Below are positions 1,789 to 63,445 of a stretch of 64,000 nucleotides of DNA, piece by piece. Where the stretch lies: NCBI GenBank assembly GCA_037143195.1, contig JBAWZD010000002.1, positions 72,785-136,784 on the forward strand. The letters are read 5' to 3'. This DNA is from a bacterium. Its GTDB lineage: Bacteria; Patescibacteriota; Minisyncoccia; Phycocordibacterales; UBA9973. The notes beneath the pieces are model-generated. The model saw nothing but the letters and a program-made list of their open reading frames with translations, searched no databases and was not told the origin of the DNA. The first letter of the stretch is position 1; every line of letters starts with the position of its first letter. The position numbers were made by a program, and so were the translations under genes.

Positions 1789-1835
1789 TCCTTTTTGGTT
1801 AGGTGCTTTTGTGTGGCATACTACAAATACTCACT

Positions 1836-3989: not shown

Positions 3990-4106
3990 AACGTTTGTTT
4001 CTCAAATTCTGCTTTTTATTAAACAAATGTCTAATTTATTAGCTATTTTCAATATAAAGTAAATAAATACTTTACTTTATGACGCACATTTTGGTATGGT
4101 TATTGT

Positions 4107-4949
4107 GTGAAAATATCGAGCACTCGAATCGAAGACGAAGTTATCGCTCTTATTCAAAAACGTTCCATGACAGCAATGGAAATTTTGCAGGGTGTTCGAG
4201 TGGCTCGCCCAAAGACAACAAAGCAGGCCGTGTATTTGGCGATTCGGAATTTGAAACATAGAGAAATCGTGACAATACATGCGAAGCTCGTCTCGCTCTC
4301 GCGAATCTGGATTGACCAAATGGCAGATTTTTATATCTTTGCTCGAAAACAGTATGCTGAGTCGTCAGTGGCAGATAGTGGGTACTTAAATCTAGAAGAA
4401 AAAGATCGAATCACGTATTCATTTAAAAATCCGATCACGACGGATGTATTTTGGGCTCACACGCTCAGTGTACTTACAGAAATTACTCCGCAGAGTGAGC
4501 CAGTCTACATATGGAATCAGCATGAATGGTTTTTCTTGGCACACAGGGAGAGCGAGAGAGCATTGTTTCGCAATATGCGTGAGAAGCGAAAAAGAACGTA
4601 TGTCTTGTCGGCACACAAGAATCATATCGATATGCATGTCGCGAAGGAGTTTGATGGAGACTGGGCACAGTATTACGCACTCGGAGAGCAATTGTTTGCG
4701 AAGCCAAATTATTACACGAACGTAGTTGGAGATTATATTCTGGAAGTTTGGCTCGACGAGAAGATCCAAAGTTCTATCGATTCATTTTACGAGAACTATA
4801 CGTTGCCTACGGAGGAAGCGATTCACGAAATTCAGAGAATCACACGAGAAACAGGGCGAACAAAACTGCGGATTTCGAAAAACAAAAAAAGGGCGAAAGA
4901 AATAAAAAAAATCTTTAGTAAATATTTTCTGATTAAAAACGACAAATAA
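4107..4949 (+). CDS. hypothetical protein, possible N-terminal winged-helix domain
   Basis: 280-aa ORF with a GTG start. A Lys-rich C-terminus is followed by a bidirectional terminator at 4949-5000. Confidence 0.4.
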   Translation: MKISSTRIEDEVIALIQKRSMTAMEILQGVRVARPKTTKQAVYLAIRNLKHREIVTIHAKLVSLSRIWIDQMADFYIFARKQYAESSVADSGYLNLEEKDRITYSFKNPITTDVFWAHTLSVLTEITPQSEPVYIWNQHEWFFLAHRESERALFRNMREKRKRTYVLSAHKNHIDMHVAKEFDGDWAQYYALGEQLFAKPNYYTNVVGDYILEVWLDEKIQSSIDSFYENYTLPTEEAIHEIQRITRETGRTKLRISKNKKRAKEIKKIFSKYFLIKNDK

Positions 4950-5000
4950 AAAACGCCCTCTTTTCCAAACAATCGAAGGAAAAGAGGGCGTTTTTTTATT
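4949..5000. terminator. bidirectional rho-independent terminator
   Basis: AAAAAACGCCCTCTTTTCC...GGAAAAGAGGGCGTTTTTTT lies between convergent genes. Confidence 0.6.
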
Positions 5001-5004
5001 TCTA

Positions 5005-6534
5005 CTATCTCGCGTATTCGATGATGCGTGTCTCGCGAATCATAGTGACTTTGATTTCACCTGGATACTTGAGTTCAGCTTCAATCTTCTTGGCGATATC
5101 GCGAGCCATTTCTTTGGCTTCGACGTCGCTCACTTTTTCTGGAGTAACGAAGATGCGAATTTCGCGTCCAGCTGAAAGTGCGTATGACTTCTCGATATTT
5201 GGGAATGCGTTGACGAGCGATTCCATTTCTTGCAAGCGCTTGAGGTAATTCTCAACACTGTCGCGTCGAGCACCTGGACGGCCACCTGAAATATTGTCGG
5301 CTGTCTGCACGATGACGGCTTCGATTGATTCGTGCGGGCAGTCGTCGTGGTGACTCTTCATTGCAACTACAACGCGTGGATCAGCACCAAACTTCTGAAG
5401 AATACGGATACCGATTTCAATGTGTGTACCTTGGACTTCATGGTCGAGTGCCTTTCCGATGTCGTGTACAAGAGCACCTTGTTTTGCGACAGCAACATCG
5501 GCGCCGAGTTCTTCAGCCATCATTCCGGCGATATGTGCCATCTCAACTGAGTGCTGGAGAACGTTTTGTCCGTAACTTGTTCGGAAATACAATCGTCCCA
5601 AAATAGCAATGATACGAGGATCGAAATTGAAGATACCACATTCGTACACTGCCTGTTCACCTTTTTCCTTGATGATTTTGTTGATATCATCCTTTGCTTT
5701 AGTGACGACTTCTTCAATCTTGGCTGGCTGGATGCGTCCGTCGAGAATGAGATTTTCAAGTGCGACGCGGGCGATCTGACGGCGAACTGGGTCGAAGGCT
5801 GAAATGATGATTGTTCCAGGTGTCTCATCGACGATGAGCTCAACTCCAGCAGCACGTTCAAAGGCGCGAATATTACGTCCTTCTTTTCCAATGATCTTGC
5901 CCTTGATGTCGTCAGATGGGATCGCGACGTTTGTTGTCATTATCTCAGCTGCCGTACTTGAGGCGAGACGTTGAATCGAAGTTGCGAGGATATCCTTTGC
6001 ACGGCGACCGAGACGTTCCTCGGCATTTTGCTCCAATTTCTGCATGCGAACCATGAGATCTTCCTCGCTATCACGCTCGATCTCTTGGATGAGCTGATTC
6101 TTGGCATCGTCACGTGAAAGCCCCGCCACTTTTTCGAGTGTCGAGACGCGTTCGGCGAGCAAATTGTCGGCACGTTCCTTGATCTTCTTGATTTCTTCGA
6201 TCTTGCCCTTTTGAATCTCTGATTCCTTGTCGATTTCTGTCTGGCGCGCGTCAAGGAGCTCTTCTTTTTTGATGAGGCGCTCCTCAGTACGCTTGAAATC
6301 CTCGGCTTTTCGGCGTTCCGTCATACGGATGTCCGAATCAGCTTCGTCTGCCTTCTTCTTGGCCTCGTCGAGAATGCGCTGAGCTTCCTCCTTCGCACCG
6401 ACGAGCATCTGCTTGATATCTATCTCAATCGAGCGTCGCTTGCCGAGGGCGGTGACTTTGCGGAGATAGTATCCACCTGCCACGCCTCCTGCGAGAGCGA
6501 TTATAACGATGAGCAATACAATAAATGTACTCAT
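5005..6534 (-). CDS. rny: ribonuclease Y
   Basis: N-terminal TM helix, long coiled coil, KH region, and HD domain (LQHSVEMAHIAGMMAEELGADVAVAKQGALVHDIGKA). Confidence 0.9.
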   Translation of the reverse strand: MSTFIVLLIVIIALAGGVAGGYYLRKVTALGKRRSIEIDIKQMLVGAKEEAQRILDEAKKKADEADSDIRMTERRKAEDFKRTEERLIKKEELLDARQTEIDKESEIQKGKIEEIKKIKERADNLLAERVSTLEKVAGLSRDDAKNQLIQEIERDSEEDLMVRMQKLEQNAEERLGRRAKDILATSIQRLASSTAAEIMTTNVAIPSDDIKGKIIGKEGRNIRAFERAAGVELIVDETPGTIIISAFDPVRRQIARVALENLILDGRIQPAKIEEVVTKAKDDINKIIKEKGEQAVYECGIFNFDPRIIAILGRLYFRTSYGQNVLQHSVEMAHIAGMMAEELGADVAVAKQGALVHDIGKALDHEVQGTHIEIGIRILQKFGADPRVVVAMKSHHDDCPHESIEAVIVQTADNISGGRPGARRDSVENYLKRLQEMESLVNAFPNIEKSYALSAGREIRIFVTPEKVSDVEAKEMARDIAKKIEAELKYPGEIKVTMIRETRIIEYAR

Positions 6535-7393: not shown

Positions 7394-7457
7394 ATAAGGT
7401 AAGTGTTACTAATAATGTTTTCTGACTATACCACAAAAATATAGAGAGTGTCGCCAA

Positions 7458-7560
7458 ATCAAAATACGTTTTGAGAAGGCCTCGCGCAGGCCCTTCGGGG
7501 GCCGAGCGGCGATGCTCGCGAGCACGCGAGACAGCGTTGCCTTTCAAAACGTATTTTGAT
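7458..7560. repeat. 63-bp-family dispersed repeat, diverged copy, inside 17-bp perfect inverted repeat
   Basis: ATCAAAATACGTTTTGA arms. The loop carries GAAGGCC...GCTCGCGAGCACGCGAGAC...GTTGCC, related to the 63-bp core. Confidence 0.6.
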
Positions 7561-7577
7561 ACTGGCCACTCTGTTTT

Positions 7578-8621: not shown

Positions 8622-8656
8622 GGTTTTCGCATACTAACACAAAAATCAAGCAGGAA

Positions 8657-8771
8657 CAAAAGCACACGCGCCTCCTTTGAAAAGGCAACCCGTTCCGCGT
8701 GCTCGCGGCCGGGCTTCTCGGCGCCAAGCGCCTGCGAAAGGCCTTCTTCAAAGGAGGCGCGTGTGCTTTTG
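8657..8771. repeat. 63-bp-family dispersed repeat copy (8684-8746) inside 25-bp perfect inverted repeat
   Basis: GGCAACCCGTTCCGCGTGCTCGCGGCCGGGCTTCTCGGCGCCAAGCGCCTGCGAAAGGCCTTC is flanked by CAAAAGCACACGCGCCTCCTTTGAA and its reverse complement. Confidence 0.7.
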
Positions 8772-8789
8772 TTTGTTGCTCGTTCGAGT

Positions 8790-10860: not shown

Positions 10861-11059
10861 ATATGATTTTAGCCTTATTTTATAAGGCTCGTTATTAAAT
10901 TTTCTAATTTTTGATACGGCGCGCAGGTACTCCCTTTAAAAAAAAGAGCCGGCCCGATGGCCGACATACCGAAACACCTTATCTAGTAACATATATATAT
11001 TACTCTGGCTGGTAAAAAGTGTCAATACGGGATGTGCGGCGACATAATATGTGTTTGTC

Positions 11060-11147
11060 GCCGCCGAGGACTGACCGAGCGAGCGGTTTCGGAGTATAGA
11101 GCGTAAACTACAAGCGCATTATTACGCGAGCAAGATTCCGCAGGCAA
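11060..11147 (-). repeat. ~90-bp-family dispersed repeat copy (core TTGCTCGCGTAA...GAAACCGCTCGCTCGGTCAGTCCTCG)
   Basis: Reverse-orientation copy in the nusA upstream intergenic region, flanked by short GTGCGGCG/CGCCGCAC inverted repeats. Confidence 0.65.
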
Positions 11148-11228
11148 GATAAATACACTATTATGGCGCCGCACTTACGTGTTGTTGGTTTTCCACAGTA
11201 GAGTGATTGATATCCACTGTCGCGATAA

Positions 11229-18972: not shown

Positions 18973-20250
18973 ATGAATATCCGATCATCACAACAAAATA
19001 CGGAACGAGGTGCTGCGATGATGATTGCCGTAATCTTTTTTATTCTTGCCTCGGTGCTCCTCGTGCTCGGATTATCTGCACCTGCTGCTCGCGAATATCG
19101 TATTGGACTTGATGCTATCACTTCACGTCAAAGTCTTGCTGCAGGAGAGTCTGGGGTTGAAGATGGGTACTATCGTCTTAAAAATGGAATGCACCTCGGT
19201 TCGAGTACCTCATTTTTTATTGGGAATGTTTCTGCTTCGACAACGATTACAAATATTGGTGGCGGAGTTGAAGAGGTGGTTGGTACTGGAAATTCGTTGG
19301 GTGACCAACGTTCAAGCACGCTTCGCGCCGTCGTTGGAAGTAGCGTTCCTCTCCACTATGCTGTTATGTCTGATGATGGAGGTATAGATATGTCTGATAC
19401 ATCGTCGGTTACTGGCGATGTACATGCAGATAAGGAACTTCACGGACAAGATGGCGTCAGTATCAGTGGTACTGCAACGGTGGGAAATTCAGCGGCAGGT
19501 GCTTACGGAGTTGTGCGAGGAGATGATGCTGCACACCAGATTCATGTGGGCGTTGGTAGTGTCGGAAATGTGTATGCGCACACTGTCAACTACACAAATG
19601 CGACGGGGATATTGTACTGCACACTTGTGCTCAGTTCCTCAGGGCCGTGTTCTCCGTATCCGGACCCTGTCTATACAGAACTTCCAATTTCAAGCACCGA
19701 TATTTCAACATGGGAAACAGATGCAGCGAGCGGGGGAGTCATTTCGGGGAGCTATAGTGTTTCGACTGCGGGAGTTACGCTCGGACCAAAGAAAATCAAT
19801 GGTGATTTGATAATTCCTGATTCTGCAAATCTGACGCTCTCTGGGGTGCTGTGGGTCACCGGGAATCTCACAATCACAGGTAGTGGAAGTATCAATCTAT
19901 CTTCAAGTTTTGGATCAAACAGTAGCATGATTATTGTTGATGGTACGATTACTACGTCCGCGGGGAGCCATATTGTTGGGTCAGGAACTCCGGGAAGTTA
20001 TGTCTTGCTCCTTTCGAATAGTACAAGCTCAAGTGCGATTACTTACCGCGGAACAGGTTCGGCGGTTGTCTATGCTCGACAAGGAACAGCTATTTTGAAC
20101 GGTTCCGCTTCGGCAAGTTTTGTCGCAGGACAGACCGTACACTTGTTTGATACGTCCTCTGTTGTGTACGATTCAGCACTGCTCGGCACGGTATTTGTGA
20201 CAGGCGCAAGTACTCCCCCCGCAATTCTCTCGTGGAGAGAGACCAATTAG
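18973..20250 (+). CDS. PilX-like pilus assembly protein (N-terminal PilX_N-type anchor)
   Basis: ERGAAMMIAVIFFILASVLLVLGL at the N-terminus is followed by a large Ser/Gly/Thr-rich domain. Confidence 0.55.
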   Translation: MNIRSSQQNTERGAAMMIAVIFFILASVLLVLGLSAPAAREYRIGLDAITSRQSLAAGESGVEDGYYRLKNGMHLGSSTSFFIGNVSASTTITNIGGGVEEVVGTGNSLGDQRSSTLRAVVGSSVPLHYAVMSDDGGIDMSDTSSVTGDVHADKELHGQDGVSISGTATVGNSAAGAYGVVRGDDAAHQIHVGVGSVGNVYAHTVNYTNATGILYCTLVLSSSGPCSPYPDPVYTELPISSTDISTWETDAASGGVISGSYSVSTAGVTLGPKKINGDLIIPDSANLTLSGVLWVTGNLTITGSGSINLSSSFGSNSSMIIVDGTITTSAGSHIVGSGTPGSYVLLLSNSTSSSAITYRGTGSAVVYARQGTAILNGSASASFVAGQTVHLFDTSSVVYDSALLGTVFVTGASTPPAILSWRETN

Positions 20251-20322
20251 CACGCCGGCGCGCTTCATTGCGAAGATCAGAGGCGCGTTTTTGTGTGCGC
20301 GCCGGCGTGCTATAATCCACCC

Positions 20323-24472: not shown

Positions 24473-25231
24473 ATGAAAGAAAACACGATTACGATATTTA
24501 CAGACGGATCTTCGCGTGGCAATCCAGGGCCTGGGGGGTGGGGTGCAGTGGTGATTGATGTTTCCGGCAAAGTCTACGAACTTGGTGGCAGGGAAGATCA
24601 TACGACGAACAACCGCATGGAGATTGCGGCGGCGCTTGGTGCGCTCGCGCACATTGAATCGCGCAAACTCGCGGGAGATATTGAGGTCAATACTGACTCG
24701 GCATATTTGCTCCAAGGGATTACGGGTTGGGTGTACGGCTGGGAGAAAAATGGATGGAAGACGAAGACGGGTGACGACGTGCTCAATCAGGATTTGTGGC
24801 GAGAATTGGGCGCGCTCGTTGCGCGACTCAAAATGAAGCATACGCTCATGTGGAACAAAGTCGGCGGGCACATCGGACTCCTCGGCAACGAGCGCGCCGA
24901 TCTCATCGCGACCAACTGTGCTGACAAGACACAACAGCTCCTCTATGTTGGTCCGCTCACTCAATATGAACAGCTCATCGGTGGCTCGGTATTTTCTGGC
25001 ACAAGCGATGACAAAATCGTGCAAAAAAAAGCCAAGAAAAAATCAAGTTCGACCGCACCAGCGTATTCATATGTCTCACTTCTTGATGGTAAGATAGAAA
25101 CACACAAGACGTGGGCAGAATGCGAACGACGAGTCAAAGGTAAAAAGGCAACGAAATTTAAAAAAGTGTTCAGCAAGCAGGAGGAAGATTCTTTGAAATA
25201 CGAATGGAGCACACTCGCTCACAAACCATAG
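24473..25231 (+). CDS. rnhA: ribonuclease HI with Lys-rich C-terminal extension
   Basis: TDGSSRGNPGPGGWGAVV...NNRMEIAAALGAL...TDSAYL. The extra ~90-aa C-terminal tail is basic. Confidence 0.8.
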   Translation: MKENTITIFTDGSSRGNPGPGGWGAVVIDVSGKVYELGGREDHTTNNRMEIAAALGALAHIESRKLAGDIEVNTDSAYLLQGITGWVYGWEKNGWKTKTGDDVLNQDLWRELGALVARLKMKHTLMWNKVGGHIGLLGNERADLIATNCADKTQQLLYVGPLTQYEQLIGGSVFSGTSDDKIVQKKAKKKSSSTAPAYSYVSLLDGKIETHKTWAECERRVKGKKATKFKKVFSKQEEDSLKYEWSTLAHKP

Positions 25232-26697
25232 ATGGATATCTGGCTTCCGGTATTGTAGGCTTTGCCACCGGAATTATTTTTGCTTCGCTTGCTCATATGA
25301 CCGCCCCCGCGACTATAGTCGCGGGGGCGGTCGGCGTTTGTCTCCTCGTCCTCGCCACAATCATTCGCAAAGCGAGATCCTACACACTGGTCGCGGGTCT
25401 CTTCATCTGCGCATTTGTCCTCGGCATGTATCGTGCCGAAATTGCAAAACCGAATACGAAAGATTTTGAAAACAACATCGGCGAGAGCGTCACTGTCGAA
25501 GGTCTGATCGCAGATGAACCATCAGTAAAATCATATGGAGCAGGTTTTACCCTCGCGACGCCTGACCTCAGTTTTTCAGTTCGTACCAAAAAGAATACGC
25601 ATCTCGCATACGGTGACAAAGTCCTCGTGTATGGCACACTCGCACTCCCTGAGAATTTCATGACTGATCAAGGCACGGAATTCGATTACATTTCATATCT
25701 CTACAAAAGTAATGTTGTGTATCAAATCAAAAACGCGAACGCGACCGTACTCGAACACAATCATGGCAATTGGATAGTCGCACACTTGATCCCCGTAAAG
25801 AACGCAATCGTAAACTGTTTCCATCGCATCTTGCCCGCGTCACAAGCCGATCTGCTCGCCGGTCTCAATCTCGGCGTCAAAGCAAACATTGATCCGCAAT
25901 TCCGCGACGACCTCGTCACGACTGGCACGATTCATATGATTGCGCTTTCTGGATACAACGTGACCGTCGTTGCAAACGCACTCCAAAGTTTTTTTATCGA
26001 TATTCTCGGACTATCCATGCGTGTCGCGTCAGCAAGTGGCGCACTGTGTATCGTGCTGTTTGTCGTCATGACAGGGATGCAATCATCGGCGGTGCGAGCG
26101 GGGATCATGGCGCTCATCGGACTTTTTGCGCGCACCAAAGGTCGCACCTATGATGCATTTCGTGCGCTTGTCATCGCCGGATTTTTGATGATACTCTACG
26201 ATCCAAAATATCTGGTTTACGATGTGTCGTTTCAACTTTCATACCTCGCTACGCTCGGTATTCTGTTCGTCACCCCAGTGCTCGAGCGAACATTCGCACG
26301 CGTGCCCAAAAAAGTCGCGTACATTATTCTGCTCCGCGAACTCATGTCCGTCACCCTTGGCGCACAGACAGGAGTCTTGCCCTTCATTCTTTACAAAATG
26401 GGCACACTCTCGCTCATTGCACTCCCCGCAAATGTCGCGATATTACCCGCGGTCCCGCTTGCCATGGGATTCGGCGCGCTCGCGGGACTCATCGGCGCAT
26501 TCAGTCTCGGACTCGCATACCCCGCCTCACTTATCACACACTATCTCCTCAGCTATATCACCGGAGCCGTGCAATTCCTCGCGCGCGTCCCGTTCGCGTC
26601 AGTCGTCATAAAACACTTTCCATTATGGCTGTGTATCTGTATGTATTTGTGTCTAATGTTTTTTTTGTATAAAAAATGGCACAGTGAAAAAGTGTAG
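25204..26697 (+). CDS. comEC: DNA internalization channel ComEC/Rec2 (membrane competence domain only, no fused MBL domain)
   Basis: DUF4131-like N-terminal region (FDYISYLYKSNVVYQI) and a competence domain (GTIHMIALSGYNVTVV). Multiple TM helices are present. The 5' end overlaps rnhA, so the true start may be an internal Met. Confidence 0.75.
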   Translation: MEHTRSQTIDGYLASGIVGFATGIIFASLAHMTAPATIVAGAVGVCLLVLATIIRKARSYTLVAGLFICAFVLGMYRAEIAKPNTKDFENNIGESVTVEGLIADEPSVKSYGAGFTLATPDLSFSVRTKKNTHLAYGDKVLVYGTLALPENFMTDQGTEFDYISYLYKSNVVYQIKNANATVLEHNHGNWIVAHLIPVKNAIVNCFHRILPASQADLLAGLNLGVKANIDPQFRDDLVTTGTIHMIALSGYNVTVVANALQSFFIDILGLSMRVASASGALCIVLFVVMTGMQSSAVRAGIMALIGLFARTKGRTYDAFRALVIAGFLMILYDPKYLVYDVSFQLSYLATLGILFVTPVLERTFARVPKKVAYIILLRELMSVTLGAQTGVLPFILYKMGTLSLIALPANVAILPAVPLAMGFGALAGLIGAFSLGLAYPASLITHYLLSYITGAVQFLARVPFASVVIKHFPLWLCICMYLCLMFFLYKKWHSEKV

Positions 26698-26704
26698 CAA
26701 AAAT

Positions 26705-26802
26705 AAAAACCTCTTTTGAAGAAGGCCTTTCGCAGGCGCTTGGCGCCGAGAAGCTCGCGCGCGAGCACGCGCGACGAGTTGCCTTTTCAAAAGAGGTTTT
26801 TA
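26705..26802. repeat. 63-bp-family dispersed repeat copy (26721-26783, reverse orientation) inside 16-bp inverted repeat
   Basis: The core is the exact reverse complement of the copy inside truB (63/63 by eye). Confidence 0.75.
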
Positions 26803-26814
26803 ATTTCGCCCAAA

Positions 26815-30603: not shown

Positions 30604-32718
30604 ATGCGCCCCTCACGTCTTTTCATTCTGATCGCGAGTGTTATCGGATTCCTCATTCCGGTGGCACTTTTTGCTTCCACGGGTGGCATTGATGCGACGA
30701 ATCACACCGCACGATTGTGTTCGAACGAGGATTGTTCCGCCTATTCAATCGTCAATTGGAAACCAACAAACGGTGGGGGAGTTTCAATTACCGATACAAC
30801 ACTTTCTGGATATATTTGGTCAAACAAACTCGGATGGATCAATCTCGCGCCAATAAATGGCGGAGTGCACAACACCTCGAGCGGTACAGTCTCGGGCGAT
30901 GCATGGGGCTCGACCGCGAGTTGGGTGAATTTTCGTCCAACACACGGCGGAGTCACGATCAATCCGTCGACGGGGGAATTTTCTGGCTATGCATGGGTTT
31001 CCGGTGGCGGCTGGATGCTGTTTGATTGTTCCAAAGCCGATGCTTGTGTGAAGACTGATTGGCGTCCAACTGTTGTGGTGACGACGCACACCACTCCACC
31101 TCCTCCGCTCATTTGTCTCGACCGCACAGCGCTCAATTATGGAGGATCGCTTCCGTGTGTGTACCCGACACTGTGTACTGATACAACTGCGACCAATTAT
31201 GGTTCCGTTGGAATGTGTACGTACGCATTATTGTGTCAGGATCGAACGGCAACAAATTTCGGCGGGTCATTACCGTGTACGTATACGCTGACGTGTACTG
31301 ACACAACGGCGACGAATTACGGTTCTACCGGTAGCTGCACCTACGCGCTATTGTGTCGAGACCGCACCGCTACCAACTATGGCGGAGCATTGCCATGTTC
31401 CTATGCGACGACTTGTACCGATACTGCAGCGACCAACTACGGCGCGACGGGTGCGTGTACGTATGCGCCACCACCACTATGTCTTGATACAACTGCGACG
31501 AACTACCTCGGTTCATTTCCATGTGTATACGCAAGCACAATCTGTACTGATCCATCAGCTAGCAATTTCCGACAATCTGGCACCTGTGTGTATCCAACAA
31601 TAGTTCACACTGAAACGACCGGAGGGGGAGGCGGTTGTCCAATTTCTACCGCGACTGACATTGTCGGAGAAGTTATCGGCCAAGTAAAAAATAGTTACTG
31701 TAATACGACGCAGACTGTCGGCACGACATACAAAAAAGTAAAAGCGATTCTTGGTACGAGCACTGCCACAAAAGCTGAAGCTGTTGCTGCGACCGTGGGA
31801 GTTGTTGCAAGTGCTGCAACATCAATTTTCACCGCGCTCTTTTTGAATCCACTTTCATTCTCCGAAATCTTCCTGATCCCTGCTCGCTTGTGGTCGCTTC
31901 TCCTCGCTGCGCTCGGACTCAAAAAACGTCACCAGCCATGGGGCACGGTCTATGACAGTATCACCAAACAACCACTTGATCCTGCATATGTGACACTCCG
32001 TACTATTGAAGGAGAAGACGTCGTTTCCAATTTGACCGACCTCGATGGACGATTCGGATTCGTGGTGCCAAAGCCAGGTGTGTATTCAATCTTCGCGCAG
32101 AAGACGAACTATCTTTTCCCATCACAGCAACTCGTCGGACGTGACCACGACGAGCTCTACCGAGATTTGTATTTCGGCGAACACTTTACTGTTGAGAATG
32201 CGGGAGATGTCGTCATCAAAAATATTCCGATGGATCCAATGCATTTCGATTGGAATGAATTCGCGAAGAATCAACAGAACCTCATGAAGTTCTATTCGAA
32301 GCGTGACAAGATTTTGCGTCGCGTGTCCGACGTCCTTTTTGGCGCAGGATTTGCAATTGCGATTCTTGCGACAGTATTTGCCCCAAAACTATACAATATT
32401 ATTGTCCTCGTTTTGTATGTCGGACTCTTCTTCCTCCGTCAATATGGCAAACATTCACGACCATACGGAGATATCACCGATGCGAAAACCGGTTTGCCAC
32501 TTTCATTTGCGCTCATTCGCATCGCGTCGCTTTCAACTGGCGTTGAGGTCATGCACCGCATTGCCGATGCGCAAGGCCGATATTACGCACTTCTCCCAAA
32601 TGCCGACTACAAAGTCCGCATCGATCGCAAACTGCCCGACGGCACCTATCAAACCGCAGTCACTGACCTACCCGCAACCGTCAAGAAAGGCTATCTCTCG
32701 AGTAAATTCAAGGTGTAG
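30604..32718 (+). CDS. large surface/membrane protein with GYAW repeats, eight 20-aa two-Cys tandem repeats, and a C-terminal TM domain
   Basis: N-terminal anchor. Three repeats of LSGYIWSNKLGWINL / VSGDAWGSTASWVNF / FSGYAWVSGGGWMLF. Eight copies of xC(T/Q/R)DxTATNYGxxxxC(T/V)Yxx. A Gly5 linker and about four C-terminal TM helices. The stop codon lies inside a 42-bp perfect inverted repeat. Confidence 0.65.
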   Translation: MRPSRLFILIASVIGFLIPVALFASTGGIDATNHTARLCSNEDCSAYSIVNWKPTNGGGVSITDTTLSGYIWSNKLGWINLAPINGGVHNTSSGTVSGDAWGSTASWVNFRPTHGGVTINPSTGEFSGYAWVSGGGWMLFDCSKADACVKTDWRPTVVVTTHTTPPPPLICLDRTALNYGGSLPCVYPTLCTDTTATNYGSVGMCTYALLCQDRTATNFGGSLPCTYTLTCTDTTATNYGSTGSCTYALLCRDRTATNYGGALPCSYATTCTDTAATNYGATGACTYAPPPLCLDTTATNYLGSFPCVYASTICTDPSASNFRQSGTCVYPTIVHTETTGGGGGCPISTATDIVGEVIGQVKNSYCNTTQTVGTTYKKVKAILGTSTATKAEAVAATVGVVASAATSIFTALFLNPLSFSEIFLIPARLWSLLLAALGLKKRHQPWGTVYDSITKQPLDPAYVTLRTIEGEDVVSNLTDLDGRFGFVVPKPGVYSIFAQKTNYLFPSQQLVGRDHDELYRDLYFGEHFTVENAGDVVIKNIPMDPMHFDWNEFAKNQQNLMKFYSKRDKILRRVSDVLFGAGFAIAILATVFAPKLYNIIVLVLYVGLFFLRQYGKHSRPYGDITDAKTGLPLSFALIRIASLSTGVEVMHRIADAQGRYYALLPNADYKVRIDRKLPDGTYQTAVTDLPATVKKGYLSSKFKV

Positions 32719-32856
32719 CACAGAAAAGTGCAAAAAGGTGCTCTCGGAAGCACCAGCGTAAAATCCTGCTGGATTTTCGCCTCACGCTCGCGCCGTCGCG
32801 CTCCGCGAGTGCTTCCGAGAGCACCTTTTTGCACTTTTCTGTGCTACACCTTGCTT
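32715..32856. repeat. 42-bp perfect inverted repeat with ~58-nt structured loop, overlapping stop codon of surface-protein gene
   Basis: The arm GGTGTAGCACAGAAAAGTGCAAAAAGGTGCTCTCGGAAGCAC pairs with its exact reverse complement. The loop contains a CGCTCGCG motif and an inner small hairpin. Confidence 0.7.
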
Positions 32857-32957
32857 TTTTTCGAGACTCTATGTATAGTACTGACCTAAGCGAGTGCTCC
32901 TAGATATTGTTCGAGTTGCTTCTGGGTGTTACCTTGGCTTTTTATTTTAATTACTAC

Positions 32958-34011: not shown

Positions 34012-36177
34012 ATGGAACGCGATTATCCTCTCAATAAGGTTCGAAACTTCGGTATCATTGCCCACATTGATGCCGGCAAGACCACGACATCTGAGCGTGT
34101 GCTCTTTTATACGGGTGTCTCCCATAAGATCGGAGAAGTGCACGAAGGTGAAGCTGTGATGGACTGGATGGAGCAGGAGCGTGAGCGTGGAATCACGATT
34201 ACGGCTGCTGCGACAACATGTTTTTGGACACCGACCTACGTCCCCGACGTCAAAGACTTGAGCAAGAAGTTCCGCTTCAACCTCATCGATACTCCTGGAC
34301 ACATCGACTTCACTGTGGAAGTGAAGCGTTCTCTCCGTGTGCTTGACGGTGCAGTCGTCGTCTTCGACGGTGTTGCCGGAGTTGAGCCACAGTCAGAGAC
34401 CAACTGGCGCTACGCCGACGAGGCCAATGTTCCTCGTATCTGTTTCATCAACAAGCTCGACCGAACAGGTGCAAACTTTGAGAAATCATTCGCATCTATC
34501 ATCGACCGTCTCAGTAAGAAAGCTGTTCGTCTCCACCTCCCAATCGGTCTCGAAGAAAAATTCGAAGGTGTTATTGACCTCCTCCAAAACAAAGCAGTTC
34601 GCTTTGAAGGAGACAAGGGTGAAAAGGTCGTTGTTTCAGACAACATTCCAGAAGATATGAAGGCCGATGTTGCAAAATATCGTGCAGAACTCATCGAAGC
34701 AATCGTTGCAAACGACGATGCAATGATGACTGCATATCTCGATGGTAAAGAGCCATCACTTGCTGACCTCAAAAAGGTGCTCCGCAAGGCTGTTATCGCA
34801 AACGACATCTTCCCAGTGCTCGCTGGAACGGCACTCAAGAACAAGGGTGTTCAGCTCGTGCTCGACGCAGTTGTCGACTACCTCCCATCACCATCTGACA
34901 TGCCACCAATGCATGCAATCAACCCTGACACCGAAGAGGATGTTGTCATCACGGCAAACGACAATGAGCCACTCTCAGCGCTTGCCTTCAAAGTTGCGTC
35001 TGACCCATTCGTTGGACAGCTCATCTTCTTCCGCGTGTACTCAGGAACGCTTTCTGCTGGATCATATGTCTACAACCCACGCACTCGCAACAAAGAGCGC
35101 GTTGGCCGTATCGTTCGTATGCACGCAAACGAACGTGAAGAAGTGAAGAAAGTATTCGCTGGAGAAATCGCAGCGGCAGTTGGACTCAAAGAGGCGATCA
35201 CCTCTGATACACTCTGTGAGCCAGAGCACCCAATCGCCCTTGACCGTATCGTCTTCCCAGAGCCTGTTATCTCGATGCGTATCGAGCCAAAGACAAAGGC
35301 TGACCAAGAAAAAATGGGTATGGCACTCAACCGTCTCGGTCAAGAAGATCCAACATTCCGCGTTTCAACAGATCAGGAAACAGGTGAGACAATAATCGCC
35401 GGAATGGGAGAACTTCACCTCGAAATCATCGTTGACCGTCTCAAGCGCGAATTCACTGTTGAAGTGAACGTTGGTAAGCCTCAGGTTGCGTACCGCGAAA
35501 CAATTTCGTCTGAATCAGAGGCTGAAGGTAAGTACATCAAGCAGACGGGAGGTCGTGGAAACTACGGTCACGTCAAGATCAAGATGAAGCCAATGGTCAA
35601 AATGACCAAGGAAGAAATCGAAGACCTTCCACGCAACACCAAGCGCGAAGAACACTTCGAATTCATCAACACAATCAAGGGAGGAGCTATTCCATTGGAA
35701 TACATCCCAGCCTGTGAAAAAGGATTCAAAGAAGGTCTCGATCGTGGAGTTGTTGCCGGATTCAAAATGGAAGATATTTCTGTTGAACTCTGGGATGGTT
35801 CGTACCACGATGTGGACTCAAACGAAATGGCCTTCAAGATTGCAGCCTCAATGGCAGTACAAGAAGCTGCGAAGCGTGCAAACCCTGTTATCCTTGAGCC
35901 AATGATGAGTGTTGAAGTGGTGACTCCAGACAAATTCATGGGAGACGTCACTGGATCGCTCTCAGCAAAACGTGGAATCATCGAAGGTATGGAGCAGCGT
36001 GGACTCAACCAAGCCGTCAAAGCTGTGGTGCCACTCTCTGAAATGTTCGGTTACATGACGAACCTTCGCTCAATGACAGAAGGTCGCGCAGGATTCACAA
36101 TGGAATTCCTCCGCTACGACATCGTTCCGAAGAACGTTGCTGATGAAATCGTCAAGGCTCGTTCAGCGACAGCGTAA
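34012..36177 (+). CDS. fusA: elongation factor G
   Basis: AHIDAGKTTT G-domain and EF-G domains II-V. Confidence 0.95.
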   Translation: MERDYPLNKVRNFGIIAHIDAGKTTTSERVLFYTGVSHKIGEVHEGEAVMDWMEQERERGITITAAATTCFWTPTYVPDVKDLSKKFRFNLIDTPGHIDFTVEVKRSLRVLDGAVVVFDGVAGVEPQSETNWRYADEANVPRICFINKLDRTGANFEKSFASIIDRLSKKAVRLHLPIGLEEKFEGVIDLLQNKAVRFEGDKGEKVVVSDNIPEDMKADVAKYRAELIEAIVANDDAMMTAYLDGKEPSLADLKKVLRKAVIANDIFPVLAGTALKNKGVQLVLDAVVDYLPSPSDMPPMHAINPDTEEDVVITANDNEPLSALAFKVASDPFVGQLIFFRVYSGTLSAGSYVYNPRTRNKERVGRIVRMHANEREEVKKVFAGEIAAAVGLKEAITSDTLCEPEHPIALDRIVFPEPVISMRIEPKTKADQEKMGMALNRLGQEDPTFRVSTDQETGETIIAGMGELHLEIIVDRLKREFTVEVNVGKPQVAYRETISSESEAEGKYIKQTGGRGNYGHVKIKMKPMVKMTKEEIEDLPRNTKREEHFEFINTIKGGAIPLEYIPACEKGFKEGLDRGVVAGFKMEDISVELWDGSYHDVDSNEMAFKIAASMAVQEAAKRANPVILEPMMSVEVVTPDKFMGDVTGSLSAKRGIIEGMEQRGLNQAVKAVVPLSEMFGYMTNLRSMTEGRAGFTMEFLRYDIVPKNVADEIVKARSATA

Positions 36178-36204: not shown

Positions 36205-36240
36205 CAAAAGGCGCGCCCTTCGGGCGCGCCTTTTGTATAC
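36205..36240. terminator. bidirectional GC-hairpin terminator (copy 1 of identical pair)
   Basis: CAAAAGGCGCGCCCTTCGGGCGCGCCTTTTGTAT lies after fusA. Confidence 0.6.
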
Positions 36241-36388: not shown

Positions 36389-37210
36389 GTGTGTTTTTGT
36401 CCTGTTACGTTGTTCGCGCAAGTATTATTTGGTGGTGATACTGGTTTTCGTGTCATATTATCCAATCTTACAACTACATCAGTAACAGTAACTATTCCCC
36501 CAGTTACAGGAAAAGTAGAGAAGGACGCGGTGTTTCATTTAAGAGATGCAACTGATAATAAAAATTGGGTCGGTGGGGATACATGGGCAGACCCAGTCGG
36601 TGGTTTCGATTTCGTTCCCTGCTGTACTGTAAAAATTGCGAACGGAACGATAACAAAAACGTTCACCTTGAAGCCCCAACATATTTATAACATTGATGCG
36701 ATGGTAAATTTTGAAAGCGATTTTCAGGACACCGATGCGATAGAATTTAATACAGGCTGCCCAGACTTGCCGGCCGGTCAACAGCGAGTCTCAGGTTCAT
36801 CATGTGACGACCCGAAACTTTCACCACCGGGAACAGTAAAGTCCTCTGGCTCGTCTGGATCTAACGATACAGGAAGTAACTCAACCTCAGGAGGTACTCA
36901 AAATGGAAATACGCTCGATGTAAAAGCATCAGGATTAAATCTCAAATTGAGTCTTGATAATCCAGTTGGTGATATCAAAACGATACCGGATTTTGTTGAG
37001 AAATGCCTAACCGCGGTGATGCTCCTGCTTTCGCCAATTATTGTGATAATGATACTTTATTCTGGATTCCTTTTTGTTACAGCACAGGGAAACTCAGAAA
37101 AGTTACAGACCGCAAAAAGTACGATTTTATACGCACTCATTGGCGCCGCTATCATTATTGGAGCGAAAGGATTTTCAACGGTAGTCGCGTCATTTTTTAG
37201 TCATTCGTAA
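36389..37210 (+). CDS. secreted protein with C-terminal double-TM segment (TrbC/VirB2 pilin-like tail), unknown function
   Basis: N-terminal hydrophobic signal. The C-terminus AVMLLLSPIIVIMILYSGFLFVTAQG...ILYALIGAAIIIGAKGF has two TM helices. The gene is bracketed by identical hairpins at about 36205-36240 and about 37223-37258. Confidence 0.5.
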   Translation: MCFCPVTLFAQVLFGGDTGFRVILSNLTTTSVTVTIPPVTGKVEKDAVFHLRDATDNKNWVGGDTWADPVGGFDFVPCCTVKIANGTITKTFTLKPQHIYNIDAMVNFESDFQDTDAIEFNTGCPDLPAGQQRVSGSSCDDPKLSPPGTVKSSGSSGSNDTGSNSTSGGTQNGNTLDVKASGLNLKLSLDNPVGDIKTIPDFVEKCLTAVMLLLSPIIVIMILYSGFLFVTAQGNSEKLQTAKSTILYALIGAAIIIGAKGFSTVVASFFSHS

Positions 37211-37222
37211 ACGAGAGAATAT

Positions 37223-37258
37223 ATATTTAGCAAAAGGCGCGCCCGAAGGGCGCGCCTT
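37223..37258. terminator. bidirectional GC-hairpin terminator (copy 2, loop inverted relative to copy 1)
   Basis: CAAAAGGCGCGCCCGAAGGGCGCGCCTTTTGTAT. The stem is identical to that of the hairpin at 36205-36240 and the loop is its reverse complement. Confidence 0.6.
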
Positions 37259-37364
37259 TTGTATTTCTCAACAATTCCTTTGCATAAACTTGATACCCAT
37301 TTTGGTAGTCTTTCTATAGCAAATTGTTCGTTGACAGCACTATAGCAATATTGATATATTTACT

Positions 37365-48493: not shown

Positions 48494-49072
48494 ATGCAAA
48501 AGCGCAACATCATCACCATCTGTGGCATGCTTGGTTCGGGCAAATCGACCGCTGCCAAGCGTGTAGCTACCGCACTCGGGTATCCGCACTACTCGGCAGG
48601 GGATTTCATGCGCGCGATGGCGAGCGAACGCGGACTGACGATCATTGAACTCAATTTGCTTGCGGAGAATGACCCTGCCGTTGACCGTGAGATTGATGCC
48701 AAGCAAAAGGCTTTTATGGATACCAACAACAATTTCGTGATTGATTCACGTATTGGATGGTTCTTCGCACAGGACTCATTCAAAGTATTTTTGAACCTCG
48801 ATTTGGATACGGCGAGTGCTCGCGTGTTTGGTGATATTCAAGCCAAGAAATCTGAACGCAAAGAGGAAATGTCTGAGACACTTGAGGCTGTGAAGACACG
48901 ACTCTCTGAACGACTCGCGAGTGAGAAAGAACGCTACAACAAATATTATGCGATTGAAAACTATCAAGACCCGAGTCATTTTGATTTGGTGATTGATACC
49001 AAAACGAACGATATCCCAACGGTTGAGCGAATGATTCTCGACGCATATACGGCGTGGCAAGCGAAGGTATAA
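48494..49072 (+). CDS. cmk: cytidylate kinase-like P-loop NMP kinase
   Basis: ITICGMLGSGKST P-loop, a Cmk-like layout, and a Lys-rich C-terminus. Confidence 0.55.
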   Translation: MQKRNIITICGMLGSGKSTAAKRVATALGYPHYSAGDFMRAMASERGLTIIELNLLAENDPAVDREIDAKQKAFMDTNNNFVIDSRIGWFFAQDSFKVFLNLDLDTASARVFGDIQAKKSERKEEMSETLEAVKTRLSERLASEKERYNKYYAIENYQDPSHFDLVIDTKTNDIPTVERMILDAYTAWQAKV

Positions 49073-49875
49073 AAAACGTATATCGGGTATACAAAGAGTG
49101 GGGAGAGACCCCGCTTGTTTGTTTGGAACGACTCCGTGCGAGAGAAGGAATAGATGCGAATGTGCCAATGACGTATGCTGGCCGACTTGATCCGGCCGCA
49201 GAAGGTGAACTTATCATCCTTGTGGGTGATGAATGCAAAAACAAGGATGCGTATAGCGGGCTCTCAAAAACATACGTTGCTGAAATTCTATTTGGTGTAT
49301 CAACTGACACGTATGATTTACTTGGTCTCCCAAAATTAAGTGAAGCACTCAGCAAATCTTCTTTCAAAAAGGCAACTCGTCGCGCGTGCTCGCGCGCGAG
49401 CTTCTCGGCGCCAAGCGCCTGCGAAAGGCCTTCTTTGAAAGAAGATTTGCTGAGTGCTTACCTTGATTCTCGAATTGGCAAACAAATGCAGATGTATCCA
49501 GCATATTCGTCAAAGACGGTCGGTGGAGTGCAGTTACATGCACACGCGCGGGCGGGGAAGGACGTTGATTTGCCTATACATGAGGTGGAACTCATTGCTT
49601 ACGCCGACCTCACGGTCGGCTTGCGTACTCGAGCCGAAGTAATTGATCGAGTCCGCGATCTCACGAGTATTGTCAAAGGTGATTTTCGTCAGACCGAAAT
49701 TCTTGAATCGTGGACGAGTCTTGTAACTGAATTGCCCGAGGAACTACTTGCCGTGAAAGTACACCTTACTGTTTCAAGCGGATTTTATATACGCCAATTT
49801 GCTCATGACATCGGGGAAGTTTTTGGTGCTGACACTTGTTTGTATTCGCTCGTGCGAAATCACATTGAGCAGTAG
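49054..49875 (+). CDS. truB: TruB-family pseudouridine synthase carrying an in-frame 63-bp repeat insertion
   Basis: YAGRLDPAAEGELIILVGD is the catalytic Asp motif. KTYVAEILFGVSTDTYD and MYPAYSSK are also present. The GTG start overlaps the cmk stop. A 63-bp dispersed-repeat core at 49371-49433 is inserted in-frame. Confidence 0.7.
   Translation: MASEGIKNVYRVYKEWGETPLVCLERLRAREGIDANVPMTYAGRLDPAAEGELIILVGDECKNKDAYSGLSKTYVAEILFGVSTDTYDLLGLPKLSEALSKSSFKKATRRACSRASFSAPSACERPSLKEDLLSAYLDSRIGKQMQMYPAYSSKTVGGVQLHAHARAGKDVDLPIHEVELIAYADLTVGLRTRAEVIDRVRDLTSIVKGDFRQTEILESWTSLVTELPEELLAVKVHLTVSSGFYIRQFAHDIGEVFGADTCLYSLVRNHIEQ
49351..49452. repeat. 63-bp-family dispersed repeat copy (49371-49433) flanked by 18-bp perfect inverted repeat, located in-frame inside truB
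   Basis: GGCAACTCGTCGCGCGTGCTCGCGCGCGAGCTTCTCGGCGCCAAGCGCCTGCGAAAGGCCTTC, with flanks AGCAAATCTTCTTTCAAA and TTTGAAAGAAGATTTGCT. Confidence 0.75.
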
Positions 49876-54386: not shown

Positions 54387-54503
54387 CGCCGTGCGCATGC
54401 ACGCATAAAAAAAGGCTACCCCATAAAATTCTGTTGAATTTTTGGGCCCGCTCAGGCCGTCGCCTTCCGCGAGGCCTTTTTTTATGCGTGCATGCGCATG
54501 GCG
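54387..54503. repeat. ~30-bp near-perfect inverted repeat with ~57-nt loop downstream of secY
   Basis: CGCCGTGCGCATGCACGCATAAAAAAAGGC pairs with GCCTTTTTTTATGCGTGCATGCGCATGGCG with one mismatch. Confidence 0.6.
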
Positions 54504-58242: not shown

Positions 58243-58252
58243 AAAATAGAGC

Positions 58253-58401
58253 CTCCGTACGGAATAAAAATACGCCCTTTGGCTTGTCTGCGAAATCTTG
58301 CTCGCGTAACAAATTTTAGGAGTTCATATTCTTTGCTTTGAAACCGCTCGCTCGGTCAGTCCTCGACTGCGCCAAAGGGGTATTTTTACTCCGTACGGAG
58401 G
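58253..58401 (+). repeat. ~90-bp-family repeat copy (58283-58373) inside ~32-bp inverted repeat
   Basis: Arms CCTCCGTACGGAATAAAAATACGCCCTTTGGC and GCCAAAGGGGTATTTTTACTCCGTACGGAGG. The core is CTTGTCTGCGAAATCTTGCTCGCGTAAC...GAAACCGCTCGCTCGGTCAGTCCTCGACTGCGCC. Confidence 0.7.
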
Positions 58402-61646: not shown

Positions 61647-61739
61647 GTCTTGTCTGTGAAATCTCGCTCGCGTAATAAATTGTGATGGTTTGTATTCTCT
61701 GCCTCGAAACCGCTCGCTCGGTCAGTCCTCGACTGCGCC
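61647..61739 (+). repeat. ~90-bp-family repeat copy
   Basis: CTTGTCTGTGAAATCTCGCTCGCGTAAT...GAAACCGCTCGCTCGGTCAGTCCTCGACTGCGCC. The variable middle differs from the other copies. Confidence 0.7.
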
Positions 61740-62666: not shown

Positions 62667-62770
62667 AGTGTAATCTGTAGCTTAAAAATTAAGCGGTCAA
62701 AATATGGCCGCTTTTTTTGCGCAAAAATATAGCTCTATTTTAGAGCTAAAGTTGGCACTTCGAAAGTGAG

Positions 62771-62897
62771 CGCGGGCGGATATCTCCTCGGTGCAGTCGA
62801 GGACTGACCGAGCGAGCGGTTTCGAAGCAGAGAATATAAAGTACTAAAATCTATTACGCGAGCAAGATTCCGCAGACAAGCCGAGGAGATATCCGCC
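62771..62897 (-). repeat. ~90-bp-family repeat copy (62792-62880) inside 17-20-bp inverted repeat
   Basis: Arms GCGGGCGGATATCTCCTCGG and CCGAGGAGATATCCGCC. The core is in reverse orientation. Confidence 0.7.
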
Positions 62898-62974
62898 AGC
62901 ACTTATTTGTAAATACCTCCCATTTCTGTTAGTATCCGTGCATTACTATCAGTGCTTATTCATTATTTTTATTT

Positions 62975-63445
62975 ATGCCAACACAGGAAAAATCTCTCAT
63001 TATCGTCAAGCCAGACGCAATTCAGCGCAATCTCGCGGGTGAAATCATTTCACGCCTCGAGAAGAAAGGTCTCAAAATCATCGGTCTCAAGATGATGAAT
63101 CTCGAAGACGCAAAGATTGAAGAGCACTACGCTCACATCAAGGACAAGCCATTTTTCCCAGGCATCCGTGATTTCATGAAATCAACTCCTGTCATCGTTA
63201 TGGCAGTTGAAGGAATCAATGCTGTCAGTTCGATCCGTCTTCTCGTCGGTCCAACAAAGGCATGGGAAGCGACAGCTGGTACTATCCGTGGAGATTTTTC
63301 TCTTTCAACTCAGTCAAACCTTGTGCACGCATCAGATTCAGTTGAAGCTGGTATTGCAGAAATCTCTCGCTTCTTCGAATTTGGTGAATTGTTCACCTAC
63401 GATCGCGTTGATACAGACTTCGTATATGCTGAACACAAGAAGTAA
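62975..63445 (+). CDS. ndk: nucleoside diphosphate kinase
   Basis: IIVKPDAIQRNLAGEIISRLEKKG...NLVHASDS. Confidence 0.9.
   Translation: MPTQEKSLIIVKPDAIQRNLAGEIISRLEKKGLKIIGLKMMNLEDAKIEEHYAHIKDKPFFPGIRDFMKSTPVIVMAVEGINAVSSIRLLVGPTKAWEATAGTIRGDFSLSTQSNLVHASDSVEAGIAEISRFFEFGELFTYDRVDTDFVYAEHKK

Follow-up and report, generated by a model that had tools for sequence, protein, structure and literature searches.

Why should a gene end in a long and perfectly paired palindrome? The question is raised by an inverted repeat at positions 32709-32853 of a 64,000-nucleotide stretch of a Patescibacteriota genome (UBA9973; GenBank assembly GCA_037143195.1, contig JBAWZD010000002.1, positions 72,785 to 136,784), the whole of which is referred to here as the window. 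The repeat overlaps the stop codon of a 704-residue open reading frame (ORF 30604..32718). Its conserved, phylum-wide part is the "loop", rather than the arms: a branched tip of ~55-65 nt sits on a helix of freely varying sequence, and structures of this composition lie in short gaps between transcription units. We put at roughly 55% the probability that the structure is a mobile, non-autonomous palindromic element of transcription-unit boundaries, a probable bidirectional terminator whose arms are kept perfect by copying from one arm to the other.

Base-by-base extension along the diagonal gave two 45-nt arms with no mismatch, separated by a spacer of 55 nt. An annotation made earlier from the letters of this stretch (the first-pass annotation) had recognized the perfect pairing and had put the arms at 42 bp and the spacer at ~58 nt; the pairing held when checked computationally (45 of 45 positions), and the lengths are amended here. 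The spacer folds on itself, as had been noted, through an inner hairpin of AAAATCC and GGATTTT at 32760-32777 (P2), with a loop of TGCT rather than TGCTG, and it contains a further stem, CGC..GCGCC-GTC-GCGC..GCG, at about 32784-32806 (P3). The overlap with the stop codon is also real: TAG at 32716-32718 lies inside the left arm together with the last two full codons and one further base of the ORF. A repeat finder extended the arms to 63 nt at 90% (32696-32758 and 32804-32866). The predicted RNA fold of 32690-32875 has an energy of -118.4 kcal/mol, against -49.2 ± 4.2 kcal/mol for 200 dinucleotide shuffles (z = -16.6), none of which folded as well. The 64-kb window holds 27 perfect inverted repeats with arms of at least 12 nt and spacers of at most 110 nt, compared with a mean of 0.4 in 30 simulated first-order Markov sequences, where the longest arm was 14 nt. 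The plain terminator-like palindromes among this sequence have arms of 12-23 nt, and a stem of 45 bp is, as previously remarked, far longer than termination needs.

The structure is not confined to this site. The search for inverted repeats and the classification of loop contents that the first-pass annotation had proposed were carried out on the 64-kb window and returned at least eight long inverted repeats, with spacers of 45-94 nt and arms that all differ from one another. When the spacers were compared side by side, those of seven of the eight sorted into three repeat families, A, B and C (Table 1), with the tip at 32754-32808 in family B. When a collection with one genome for each species was scanned for exact matches to the family-B motif, 66 genome stretches came up, almost all of them from Patescibacteria and from many classes of these (Paceibacterota, Doudnabacteria, Saccharibacteria, Nomura-, Zambryski-, Lloyd-, Wolfe-, Kaiser-, Vogel-, Collier-, Magasanik- and Peribacteria). 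Saccharibacteria genomes with copies include L032, L039, L047 and L065. Nearly all of these matches cap a flanking inverted repeat of 4-45 nt, the 45 nt of the present hairpin being the longest.

The consensus fold of 34 copies is a three-way junction in which the arms form P1. The upper stem of P2 is invariant and closes a UGCU loop, its lower stem covaries, and P3, which has an internal loop, covaries strongly in its distal stem. Compensatory changes are found at 17 of 24 consensus pairs; 92% of cells are paired, against 73% in shuffled alignments, and the covariation score of 0.492 compares with 0.156 after shuffling and with no more than 0.155 for slid partners. A covariance model of family B scores the two B copies of the window at 84.8 and 77.5 bits, which bears out the earlier grouping of our site with the palindrome at 54387-54503. 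The same model detects the three family-A copies and the core at 7468-7547 with 25-33 bits; families A and B are therefore one superfamily. Family C has the GCUCGG...CUGCGC stretch of P3 alone in common with A and B, as judged by eye. The window is rich in these elements: its 64 kb contain at least 10 hairpins, compared with 8 model hits across ~1 Mb of SecY relatives. These relatives (at most 66% identity) were too distant for a comparison of filled with empty sites; one of them (L126) carries a family-B member in the same slot after secY as the copy at 54387-54503. A weaker covariance hit of 20 bits at 32223-32300 contains many non-standard pairs and was not counted as a family copy. It is one of three such hits (20-26 bits) inside the 704-residue ORF and its homologues, the others being L005 3566-3643 and L007 1910-1987; the position of the window hit, on the minus strand, is conserved in the relatives, and the choice lies between a false positive and an in-frame copy that has become highly degenerate.

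These comparisons point to a family of palindromic elements across the Patescibacteria that is apparently undescribed. Rfam gave no match anywhere in the window at the gathering threshold; in E-value mode over the hairpin it returned only generic miRNA-hairpin models of at most 28 bits (thresholds 43-100 bits), and at five other loci only RNase P RNA and tRNAs, none coinciding with an element. A literature search found no paper on such elements in Patescibacteria or the candidate phyla radiation, and none containing the motif sequence. The motif had no match in a collection of viral contigs, which thus gave no sign of a phage vector. Readings of the tip as a hammerhead core or as -35/-10 hexamers were tried by eye and did not fit; for ribozymes Rfam concurs. 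Further families of tip-bearing hairpins beyond A, B and C may exist: five relatives (L098, L102, L125, L137 and L145) have long-armed hairpins after secY with tips of 47-87 nt unlike any of the three. Within the window, the spacers of two further inverted repeats, at 20248-20312 (16-nt arms, 33-nt spacer) and 24809-24898 (14-nt arms, 62-nt spacer), also fall outside these families.

The history of the arms can be read from close relatives. In L005-L007, in which the product of the 704-residue ORF is 92% identical, the hairpin is likewise present after the conserved C-terminus. In its non-coding part the left arm matches that of L007 at 27 of 35 positions (77%), and third codon positions in the 600 nt adjoining the hairpin are 63% identical between the window and the L005-L007 relative. 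The arm therefore evolves at a roughly neutral rate and yet is paired at 45 of 45 positions in the window, which indicates that its perfection reflects active maintenance and not youth; of the two causes suggested in the first-pass annotation, recent formation or active maintenance, these data favor the second. That independent assemblies of a relative show this hairpin, its arm having diverged, argues against the possibility that the palindrome is a chimeric fold-back made by the assembler. Public short-read contigs do often end inside elements (L001, L005-L007, L009, L160), apparently because the cores are repeated, which accounts for the breaks; other family members have been assembled across in many independent projects, and we regard the chance of an artefact as close to negligible.

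Substitutions in one arm are matched in the other. In the hairpin inside truB, three substitutions separate the well-paired part of the arm from that of L003/L004, and all three are mirrored in the opposite arm; in the ppa-tig hairpin both of the G-to-A changes that distinguish the window from L156 are mirrored likewise. The ppa-tig palindrome of L156 is perfect for 9 nt further outward, where only 6 of 9 positions pair in the window. The tips, in turn, are found in both orientations. In L007, 28 of 29 bases of the tip of the 32709-32853 hairpin equal the reverse complement of the window tip, and in two independent assemblies (L003 and L004) the truB tip is inverted, such that the insert is translated from the opposite strand into a different peptide; L002 has the truB tip in the orientation of the window. 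One segment is thus present in both orientations between identical inverted repeats, as in invertons, in this case between relatives and not within one population. Tip inversion and mirrored substitutions are both expected of recombination or template switching between the arms, and template switching is known to turn imperfect inverted repeats into perfect ones (PMC7202029, PMC5941160). We infer that template switching or gene conversion is the probable cause of arm perfection here.

The present hairpin also suggests how a palindrome of this kind could lengthen. In the perfect left arm the 10 nt farthest out, CAAGGTGTAG, are the end of the conserved ...FKV* ORF including its stop. Because this sequence encodes a conserved C-terminus and is ancestral, CTACACCTTG in the right arm is the copy. 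Beyond the perfect stem 9 of 13 positions still pair, including TCTCGA with TCGAGA, the left side being coding sequence and the right side containing a run of seven T. This pattern fits a palindrome that would expand outward until the sequence on both sides is under selection. Copying of an arm from the local flank applies to truB and, in the present hairpin, to the outer part; as a general rule, that one arm is always so copied, it was rejected, as the tig-clpP arms have no counterpart in the empty allele described below.

The conserved tip invites a different explanation, namely a functional structured RNA, cis-acting or small, whose junction would bind a conserved Patescibacteria protein or serve RNA processing or stability, and whose stem would be a variable helix kept by RNA-folding selection. 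Even distant classes have the same unpaired nucleotides in the tip (those of the CAC junction, of the loops UGCU and CGUC, and of the UC/UGC internal loop), covariation is strong, and a base module, 5'-CGCUCGG...stem...tip...stem'...CCUCGCU-3', brackets the variable-sequence stem in many copies from many lineages, as is seen in structured RNAs. This module forms tandem U.C/C.U mismatches on the strand that reads TAAAAT... and tandem G.A in a CGAG context on the other; tandem G.A in this context is a stable motif. The arm mismatches on the TAAAAT... strand, 19 A.C and 3 G.U (17 and 3 without the C24 genome), are asymmetric in the same sense, A.C being a wobble pair on the opposite strand. These features suggest that one particular folded strand may matter, whatever the direction of host transcription, which we take as a lead rather than a result; they would also fit a single-stranded intermediate of mobility. 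They were seen in the family-B copies of L010-L075 and at 32738-32824 of the window.

Selection on a folded RNA does not account well for the remaining observations. The arms of 58 family-B hairpins contain 871 Watson-Crick pairs and only 3 G.U pairs; RNA-folding selection alone would tolerate wobble pairs, and their near-absence argues against it. Relative to co-directional flanking genes the elements lie in both orientations (20 versus 11), and tips flip between close relatives, so that transcription of the host genes does not regularly include one and the same RNA strand. Copies stand in frame inside protein-coding genes, whole hairpins appear and disappear between relatives of ~90% identity, and no Rfam family matches. 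The covariation is open to another origin, since it could be a product of the same DNA-level copying, in which case it would be no proof of selection on structure. Taken together, these data make a structured RNA rather unlikely.

Evidence for movement comes from positions that are occupied in one genome and empty in another. The element in truB is in frame and contains no stop codon, and Pfam matches TruB_N as two stretches flanking it. The insert (~25-35 residues) is missing from aligned orthologues at 58% identity or less and present in the four closest relatives. In one truB (P0004) a second insert adjoins the first. The truB product of the window is 100% identical to WCG55_02860, a protein of a metagenome-assembled genome. 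Other in-frame family-B copies occur in a ComEC-like ORF (L057) and a TsaD-like ORF (L063), both identified by eye; in general the elements are intergenic and lie 10-150 nt from gene ends. Relatives for the tig region were collected by Tig homologues (L156/L157, Tig 98% and ~90% nucleotide identity; L158/L159, Tig 82%). The tig-clpP gap holds a 134-nt hairpin (7442-7574) in the window and just TAGAAACTATTTTTGTGG in L156/L157, with intact flanks and neither arm traceable; it is empty in L158/L159 too. The filled site reads AAAAC[..]CTATATTTTTG and the empty site AAACTATTTTTG, with no clear direct repeat or target-site duplication in this one pair. A third slot, upstream of nusA, holds a family-C hairpin in the window, a plain palindrome with 16-nt arms and no spacer in L156, and a family-B hairpin with 39-nt arms in L158/L159; all three share TTGACAC as right boundary and ..GGAAAAC as left context. 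Hairpins are thus gained, lost or replaced as whole units between relatives of ~90% nucleotide identity. The cores of the truB and post-comEC copies are 100% identical over 65 nt and their arms are unrelated, and cores can therefore be recent copies on unrelated stems. The notion that elements as a rule enter pre-existing terminator palindromes was discarded: the empty tig-clpP site has no palindrome, and truB cannot have had one of 35 bp.

A conventional interpretation of such differences would be a classical MITE (a miniature transposable element with inverted repeats) or a repeat of the repetitive extragenic palindromic (REP)/REPIN type, moved by a transposase encoded elsewhere (for example HUH/Y1), with the arms as terminal inverted repeats. 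The elements are multi-copy, mostly intergenic and variably present between relatives, the strand asymmetry suits a single-stranded intermediate, and in Doudnabacteria MFEQ01, C24 bin 233 and some Saccharibacteria the repeated unit is the whole 100-150-nt hairpin, arms included. In the window, however, copies share only 5-11 nt of arm next to the core (yTTTTGAA) and the remainder is locus-specific, to the point that two identical cores stand on unrelated arms. The absence of a clear target-site duplication at the filled/empty pair also speaks against such an element, the taxonomic span goes far beyond that of a typical MITE family, and no transposase or recombinase domain, nor a RAYT (Y1 transposase), was found among the ~30 window ORFs scanned against Pfam, which represent 64 kb of genome. 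An element of this classical type seems unlikely to us.

The position of the 32709-32853 hairpin bears on its possible role. The ORF that it closes encodes a product with a carboxypeptidase-regulatory-like domain (Pfam), the C-terminus of which, ..GYLSSKFKV*, is conserved in the orthologues of L005 and L008. Downstream lie rpsL (start 32958), an ORF at the position of rpsG and an EF-G-sized ORF, an order that agrees with the S12-S7-EF-G annotated in L008; the homologues of the neighboring proteins are all in Patescibacteria or Paceibacteria-like metagenome-assembled genomes. The exact RpsL sequence had one match, a 1.5-kb contig, and ORF 62975..63445 had none on record. A promoter-like site before rpsL was read from the sequence and is not called by a simple consensus scan. 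The last bases of the right arm overlap its -35-like hexamer, and in L008 (60% identity) a TTGCaT-17-TATAGT arrangement likewise comes directly after a hairpin, though a different one; the hairpin thus fills the gap from the stop codon to the next promoter-like site. The proposal that such foldbacks form a class at gene ends stands for many copies; the in-frame truB copy and the nusA slot, between divergently oriented genes, depart from it.

Placement between a stop codon and a promoter-like site is what would be expected of an unusually long intrinsic, perhaps bidirectional, terminator with a stem under ordinary RNA-hairpin selection and an incidental similarity in the loop. The hairpin has the stable stem-loop and the T tract of an intrinsic terminator: the T7 run begins 2 nt past the perfect stem, and on either strand a T5 comes after the inner 17 bp of each arm, as it does after the inner stems of 6-7 bp. 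Of 51 family copies, 22 have TTTT no more than 24 nt 3' of the core (18% in the background), and an A tract before the tip is also frequent. The plain palindromes of the window have the form of classical bidirectional terminators (A-tract, GC-stem, T-tract), and long-armed plain hairpins follow secY in many relatives; in the 220 nt after secY in 78 relatives, 30 have a perfect inverted repeat of at least 10 nt and 15 one of at least 15 nt. (A further claim, that plain palindromes are perfect through the center, was true of only 4 of ~18 and was not used.) By contrast, the hairpin is not the short, simple one of an intrinsic terminator (~5-14 bp stem, 3-8 nt loop), and 45 perfect base pairs without G.U are unlike the outcome of RNA-folding selection. 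The loop is a conserved multi-copy module found phylum-wide, one copy lies within truB, where termination would be harmful, and one slot between divergently oriented genes. Conservation of the tip has largely refuted this simple explanation, which we consider very unlikely. A role as terminator or insulator for the element as a whole remains plausible from these features, and would explain why it is tolerated at these positions.

A mobile palindromic element that is kept perfect by copying between its arms brings these observations together. The arm copying would take place at the DNA level, by intramolecular template switching or by gene conversion within the hairpin, a process of which the pattern is observed and the mechanism deduced. 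Such copying would also invert the asymmetric tip and let the palindrome grow outward as far as selected sequence, which here means the final codons of the ORF to the left and the promoter-like site to the right. Movement would probably proceed through a single-stranded intermediate of one particular strand; copies do now and then land in frame inside genes. An A-tract, a stable fold and a T-tract on both strands would make the element a probable bidirectional terminator or insulator.

Several points weigh against this proposal. Mobility is deduced from the comparisons between relatives, and no enzyme or mechanism has been found for it; the scan of the window ORFs for transposase and recombinase domains was negative, and the arms of the window hairpins have no second copy in any of the sequences compared, of which 64 kb are from this genome, leaving the donor unseen. 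At the tig-clpP site, arms of ~35 nt have no counterpart in the empty allele: either the insertion brought them in or the relative lost the entire palindrome by an exact deletion, so that the change may have run in either direction, and the polarity of presence/absence differences rests on few taxa. Tip orientations taken from short-read assemblies are trustworthy only if the k-mer exceeded the arm length. The possible DNA-level origin of the tip covariation belongs here as well. The slot upstream of nusA, between divergently oriented genes, needs no terminator, and the terminator role itself is a prediction from sequence features. Finally, conservation of the unpaired tip nucleotides exceeds purely selfish needs and hints at a cellular function. 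In a more specific and tentative version, which we think possible, the element would be a hitherto undescribed kind of genetic element, a self-maintaining palindromic cassette: the tip and the tandem-G.A base module would be recognized as a folded single strand by a conserved enzyme that drives insertion, tip inversion and stem copying, and the host, with its very compact genome, would employ such cassettes as bidirectional terminators or insulators that are portable. That the tip marks a new mechanism is a real possibility.

Table 1. Coordinates of the inverted repeat at 32709-32853, of related hairpins in the window and of the adjoining promoter-like site.
Feature	Position	Strand	Description
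Left arm	32709..32753		Reaches into the last codons, TTC AAG GTG plus TAG, then 35 nt of 3' non-coding sequence
Right arm	32809..32853		Perfect reverse complement of left arm; last bases CCTTG enter -35-like TTGCTT
Apical module (family-B core)	32754..32808	+	55-nt three-way junction; covariance model, 84.8 bits
Outer decayed left-arm extension	32696..32708		Coding, CTC TCG AGT AAA T; 9/13 paired with 32854-32866
Outer decayed right-arm extension	32854..32866		Includes T7 tract 32855-32861 after the perfect stem
Promoter-like site before rpsL	32851..32879	+	TTGCTT 32851-32856, 17-nt spacer, TG 32872-32873, TATAGT 32874-32879; read from sequence
Family A	8655-8773, 26697-26809, 49334-49468		Core 65 nt
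Family B	32709-32853, 54387-54503		Core 55-57 nt
Family C			Core ~90 nt; four copies in the window
Family-B hairpin after secY	54387..54503	+	30-nt arms, one mismatch; 57-nt core; 77.5 bits
tig/clpP hairpin	7442..7574	-	Core 7468-7547, intermediate between A and B; arms 17 nt perfect plus imperfect extension
Family-A hairpin, ppa/tig gap	8655..8773	+	27-nt perfect arms, 65-nt core
Family-A hairpin from comEC stop codon	26697..26809	-	Core 100% identical to truB copy; arms unrelated
Family-A hairpin in frame inside truB (ORF 49054..49875)	49334..49468	+	135 nt
Family-C hairpin after map	58252..58401	+	28-nt arms, 94-nt core
Family-C hairpin	62764..62908	-	28-nt arms
Family-C hairpin before nusA	11038..11181	-	Just upstream of -35-like TTGACA
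Family-C core copy	61649..61739	+	Flanking complementarity short only

Other features of the window were recorded alongside the elements. A terminator palindrome, GCAAAAGGCGCGCCC / GGGCGCGCCTTTTGT, is present in two copies, at 36205-36235 (loop TTC) and 37231-37261 (loop GAA), which bracket ORF 36389..37210 (type IV secretion pilin domain) just after the EF-G-sized ORF 34012..36177; this ORF looks like a gene cassette that could have been inserted along with a duplicated terminator. Within the comEC ORF (25204..26697) there is a perfect spacerless palindrome of 34 nt, GACCGCCCCCGCGACTA|TAGTCGCGGGGGCGGTC, at 25299-25332. Relative to L156 the window has an extra ~990 nt (3993-4986) containing ORF 4107..4949, with a weak TraI_2B-like match, and L156 has an extra ~510 nt (5210-5724) between clpP and the RNase Y gene. 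The adjacent ORFs 91-1788 and 1803-3533 (565 and 576 aa) each show treble-clef zinc-finger matches at both ends and may be paralogues; L156-L159 have a single ORF of 565 aa at the position of 91-3533.

The elements matter beyond this locus in several ways. Patescibacteria account for a very large share of bacterial diversity, most of it uncultivated, and hardly any work has been done on their non-coding DNA. A multi-copy, structure-conserved module that extends from Saccharibacteria to Paceibacteria, and that is found neither in Rfam nor in the literature searched, would be one of only a few such conserved features known from non-coding DNA of the group. From this family one could learn how perfect palindromes arise, persist and are tolerated in genomes with reduced repair. 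The elements account for the breaks that short-read assemblies of these organisms show at certain intergenic sites, and their in-frame insertion into housekeeping genes (truB, tsaD) is a hazard that can distort annotation and protein alignments.

Comparison with known systems places the element close to several of them. Like Rho-independent bidirectional terminators, it places a stable stem-loop directly behind a stop codon, preceded by an A tract and followed by a T tract on both strands, so that the transcript of either strand would close with a hairpin and a run of U; unlike them, it has a wobble-free stem of 45 bp (terminator stems usually have 5-14 bp), a conserved 55-nt branched loop, and copies inside a gene and in a divergent slot. 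The REP, BIME and REPIN sequences of Proteobacteria are mobilized by RAYT, a Y1 HUH transposase, and have conserved arms around a free spacer. The present elements resemble them as multi-copy extragenic palindromes at gene ends, with long hairpins, a likely single-stranded biology and effects at transcript ends, and differ in that the tip is conserved and the arms are locus-specific, in their in-frame copies and taxon, and in the lack of a RAYT among the ORFs scanned. Similarity to a MITE varies with the genome: in the window arms are shared only next to the core (5-11 nt), whereas whole arms are shared in the Doudnabacteria and C24 genomes. Rickettsia palindromic elements (RPEs) form families that are conserved over their full length and restricted to one genus. 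The likeness lies in palindromic elements of ~100-150 bp in a reduced genome that enter protein genes in frame without destroying them, as the truB, TsaD-like and ComEC-like copies do in conserved genes; the difference lies in the superphylum-wide range and variable stems found here. RPEs are mentioned in a review of MITEs (PMC10969869).

The perfection of the arms recalls template switching at quasipalindromes (PMC7202029) and the conservation of perfect repeats in Proteobacteria (PMC5941160), in which the nascent strand serves as the template that perfects an inverted repeat. Those reports concern a mutational hotspot or a modest bias on short repeats, whereas here the process would act on arms of 20-45 bp at many loci and flip the tip. 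As in invertons, a short segment bounded by inverted repeats occurs in both orientations among close relatives; unlike invertons, the 55-nt segment contains no promoter or gene and no recombinase domain was found in the window ORFs scanned, and because the inverted repeats differ at each locus no site-specific recombinase could recognize them all. In the attC sites of integrons the base of the hairpin is conserved and the center varies. These sites share with our elements a conserved structure of variable sequence and, as suggested above for ours, an active folded single strand and a preference for one strand, and differ from them in that here it is the tip that is conserved and neither integrase nor cassette array is present. 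Palindromic repeats between genes are a kind of element already known, as are terminator hairpins that template switching keeps perfect; what appears to be new is a conserved branched tip carried on stems that evolve in concert.

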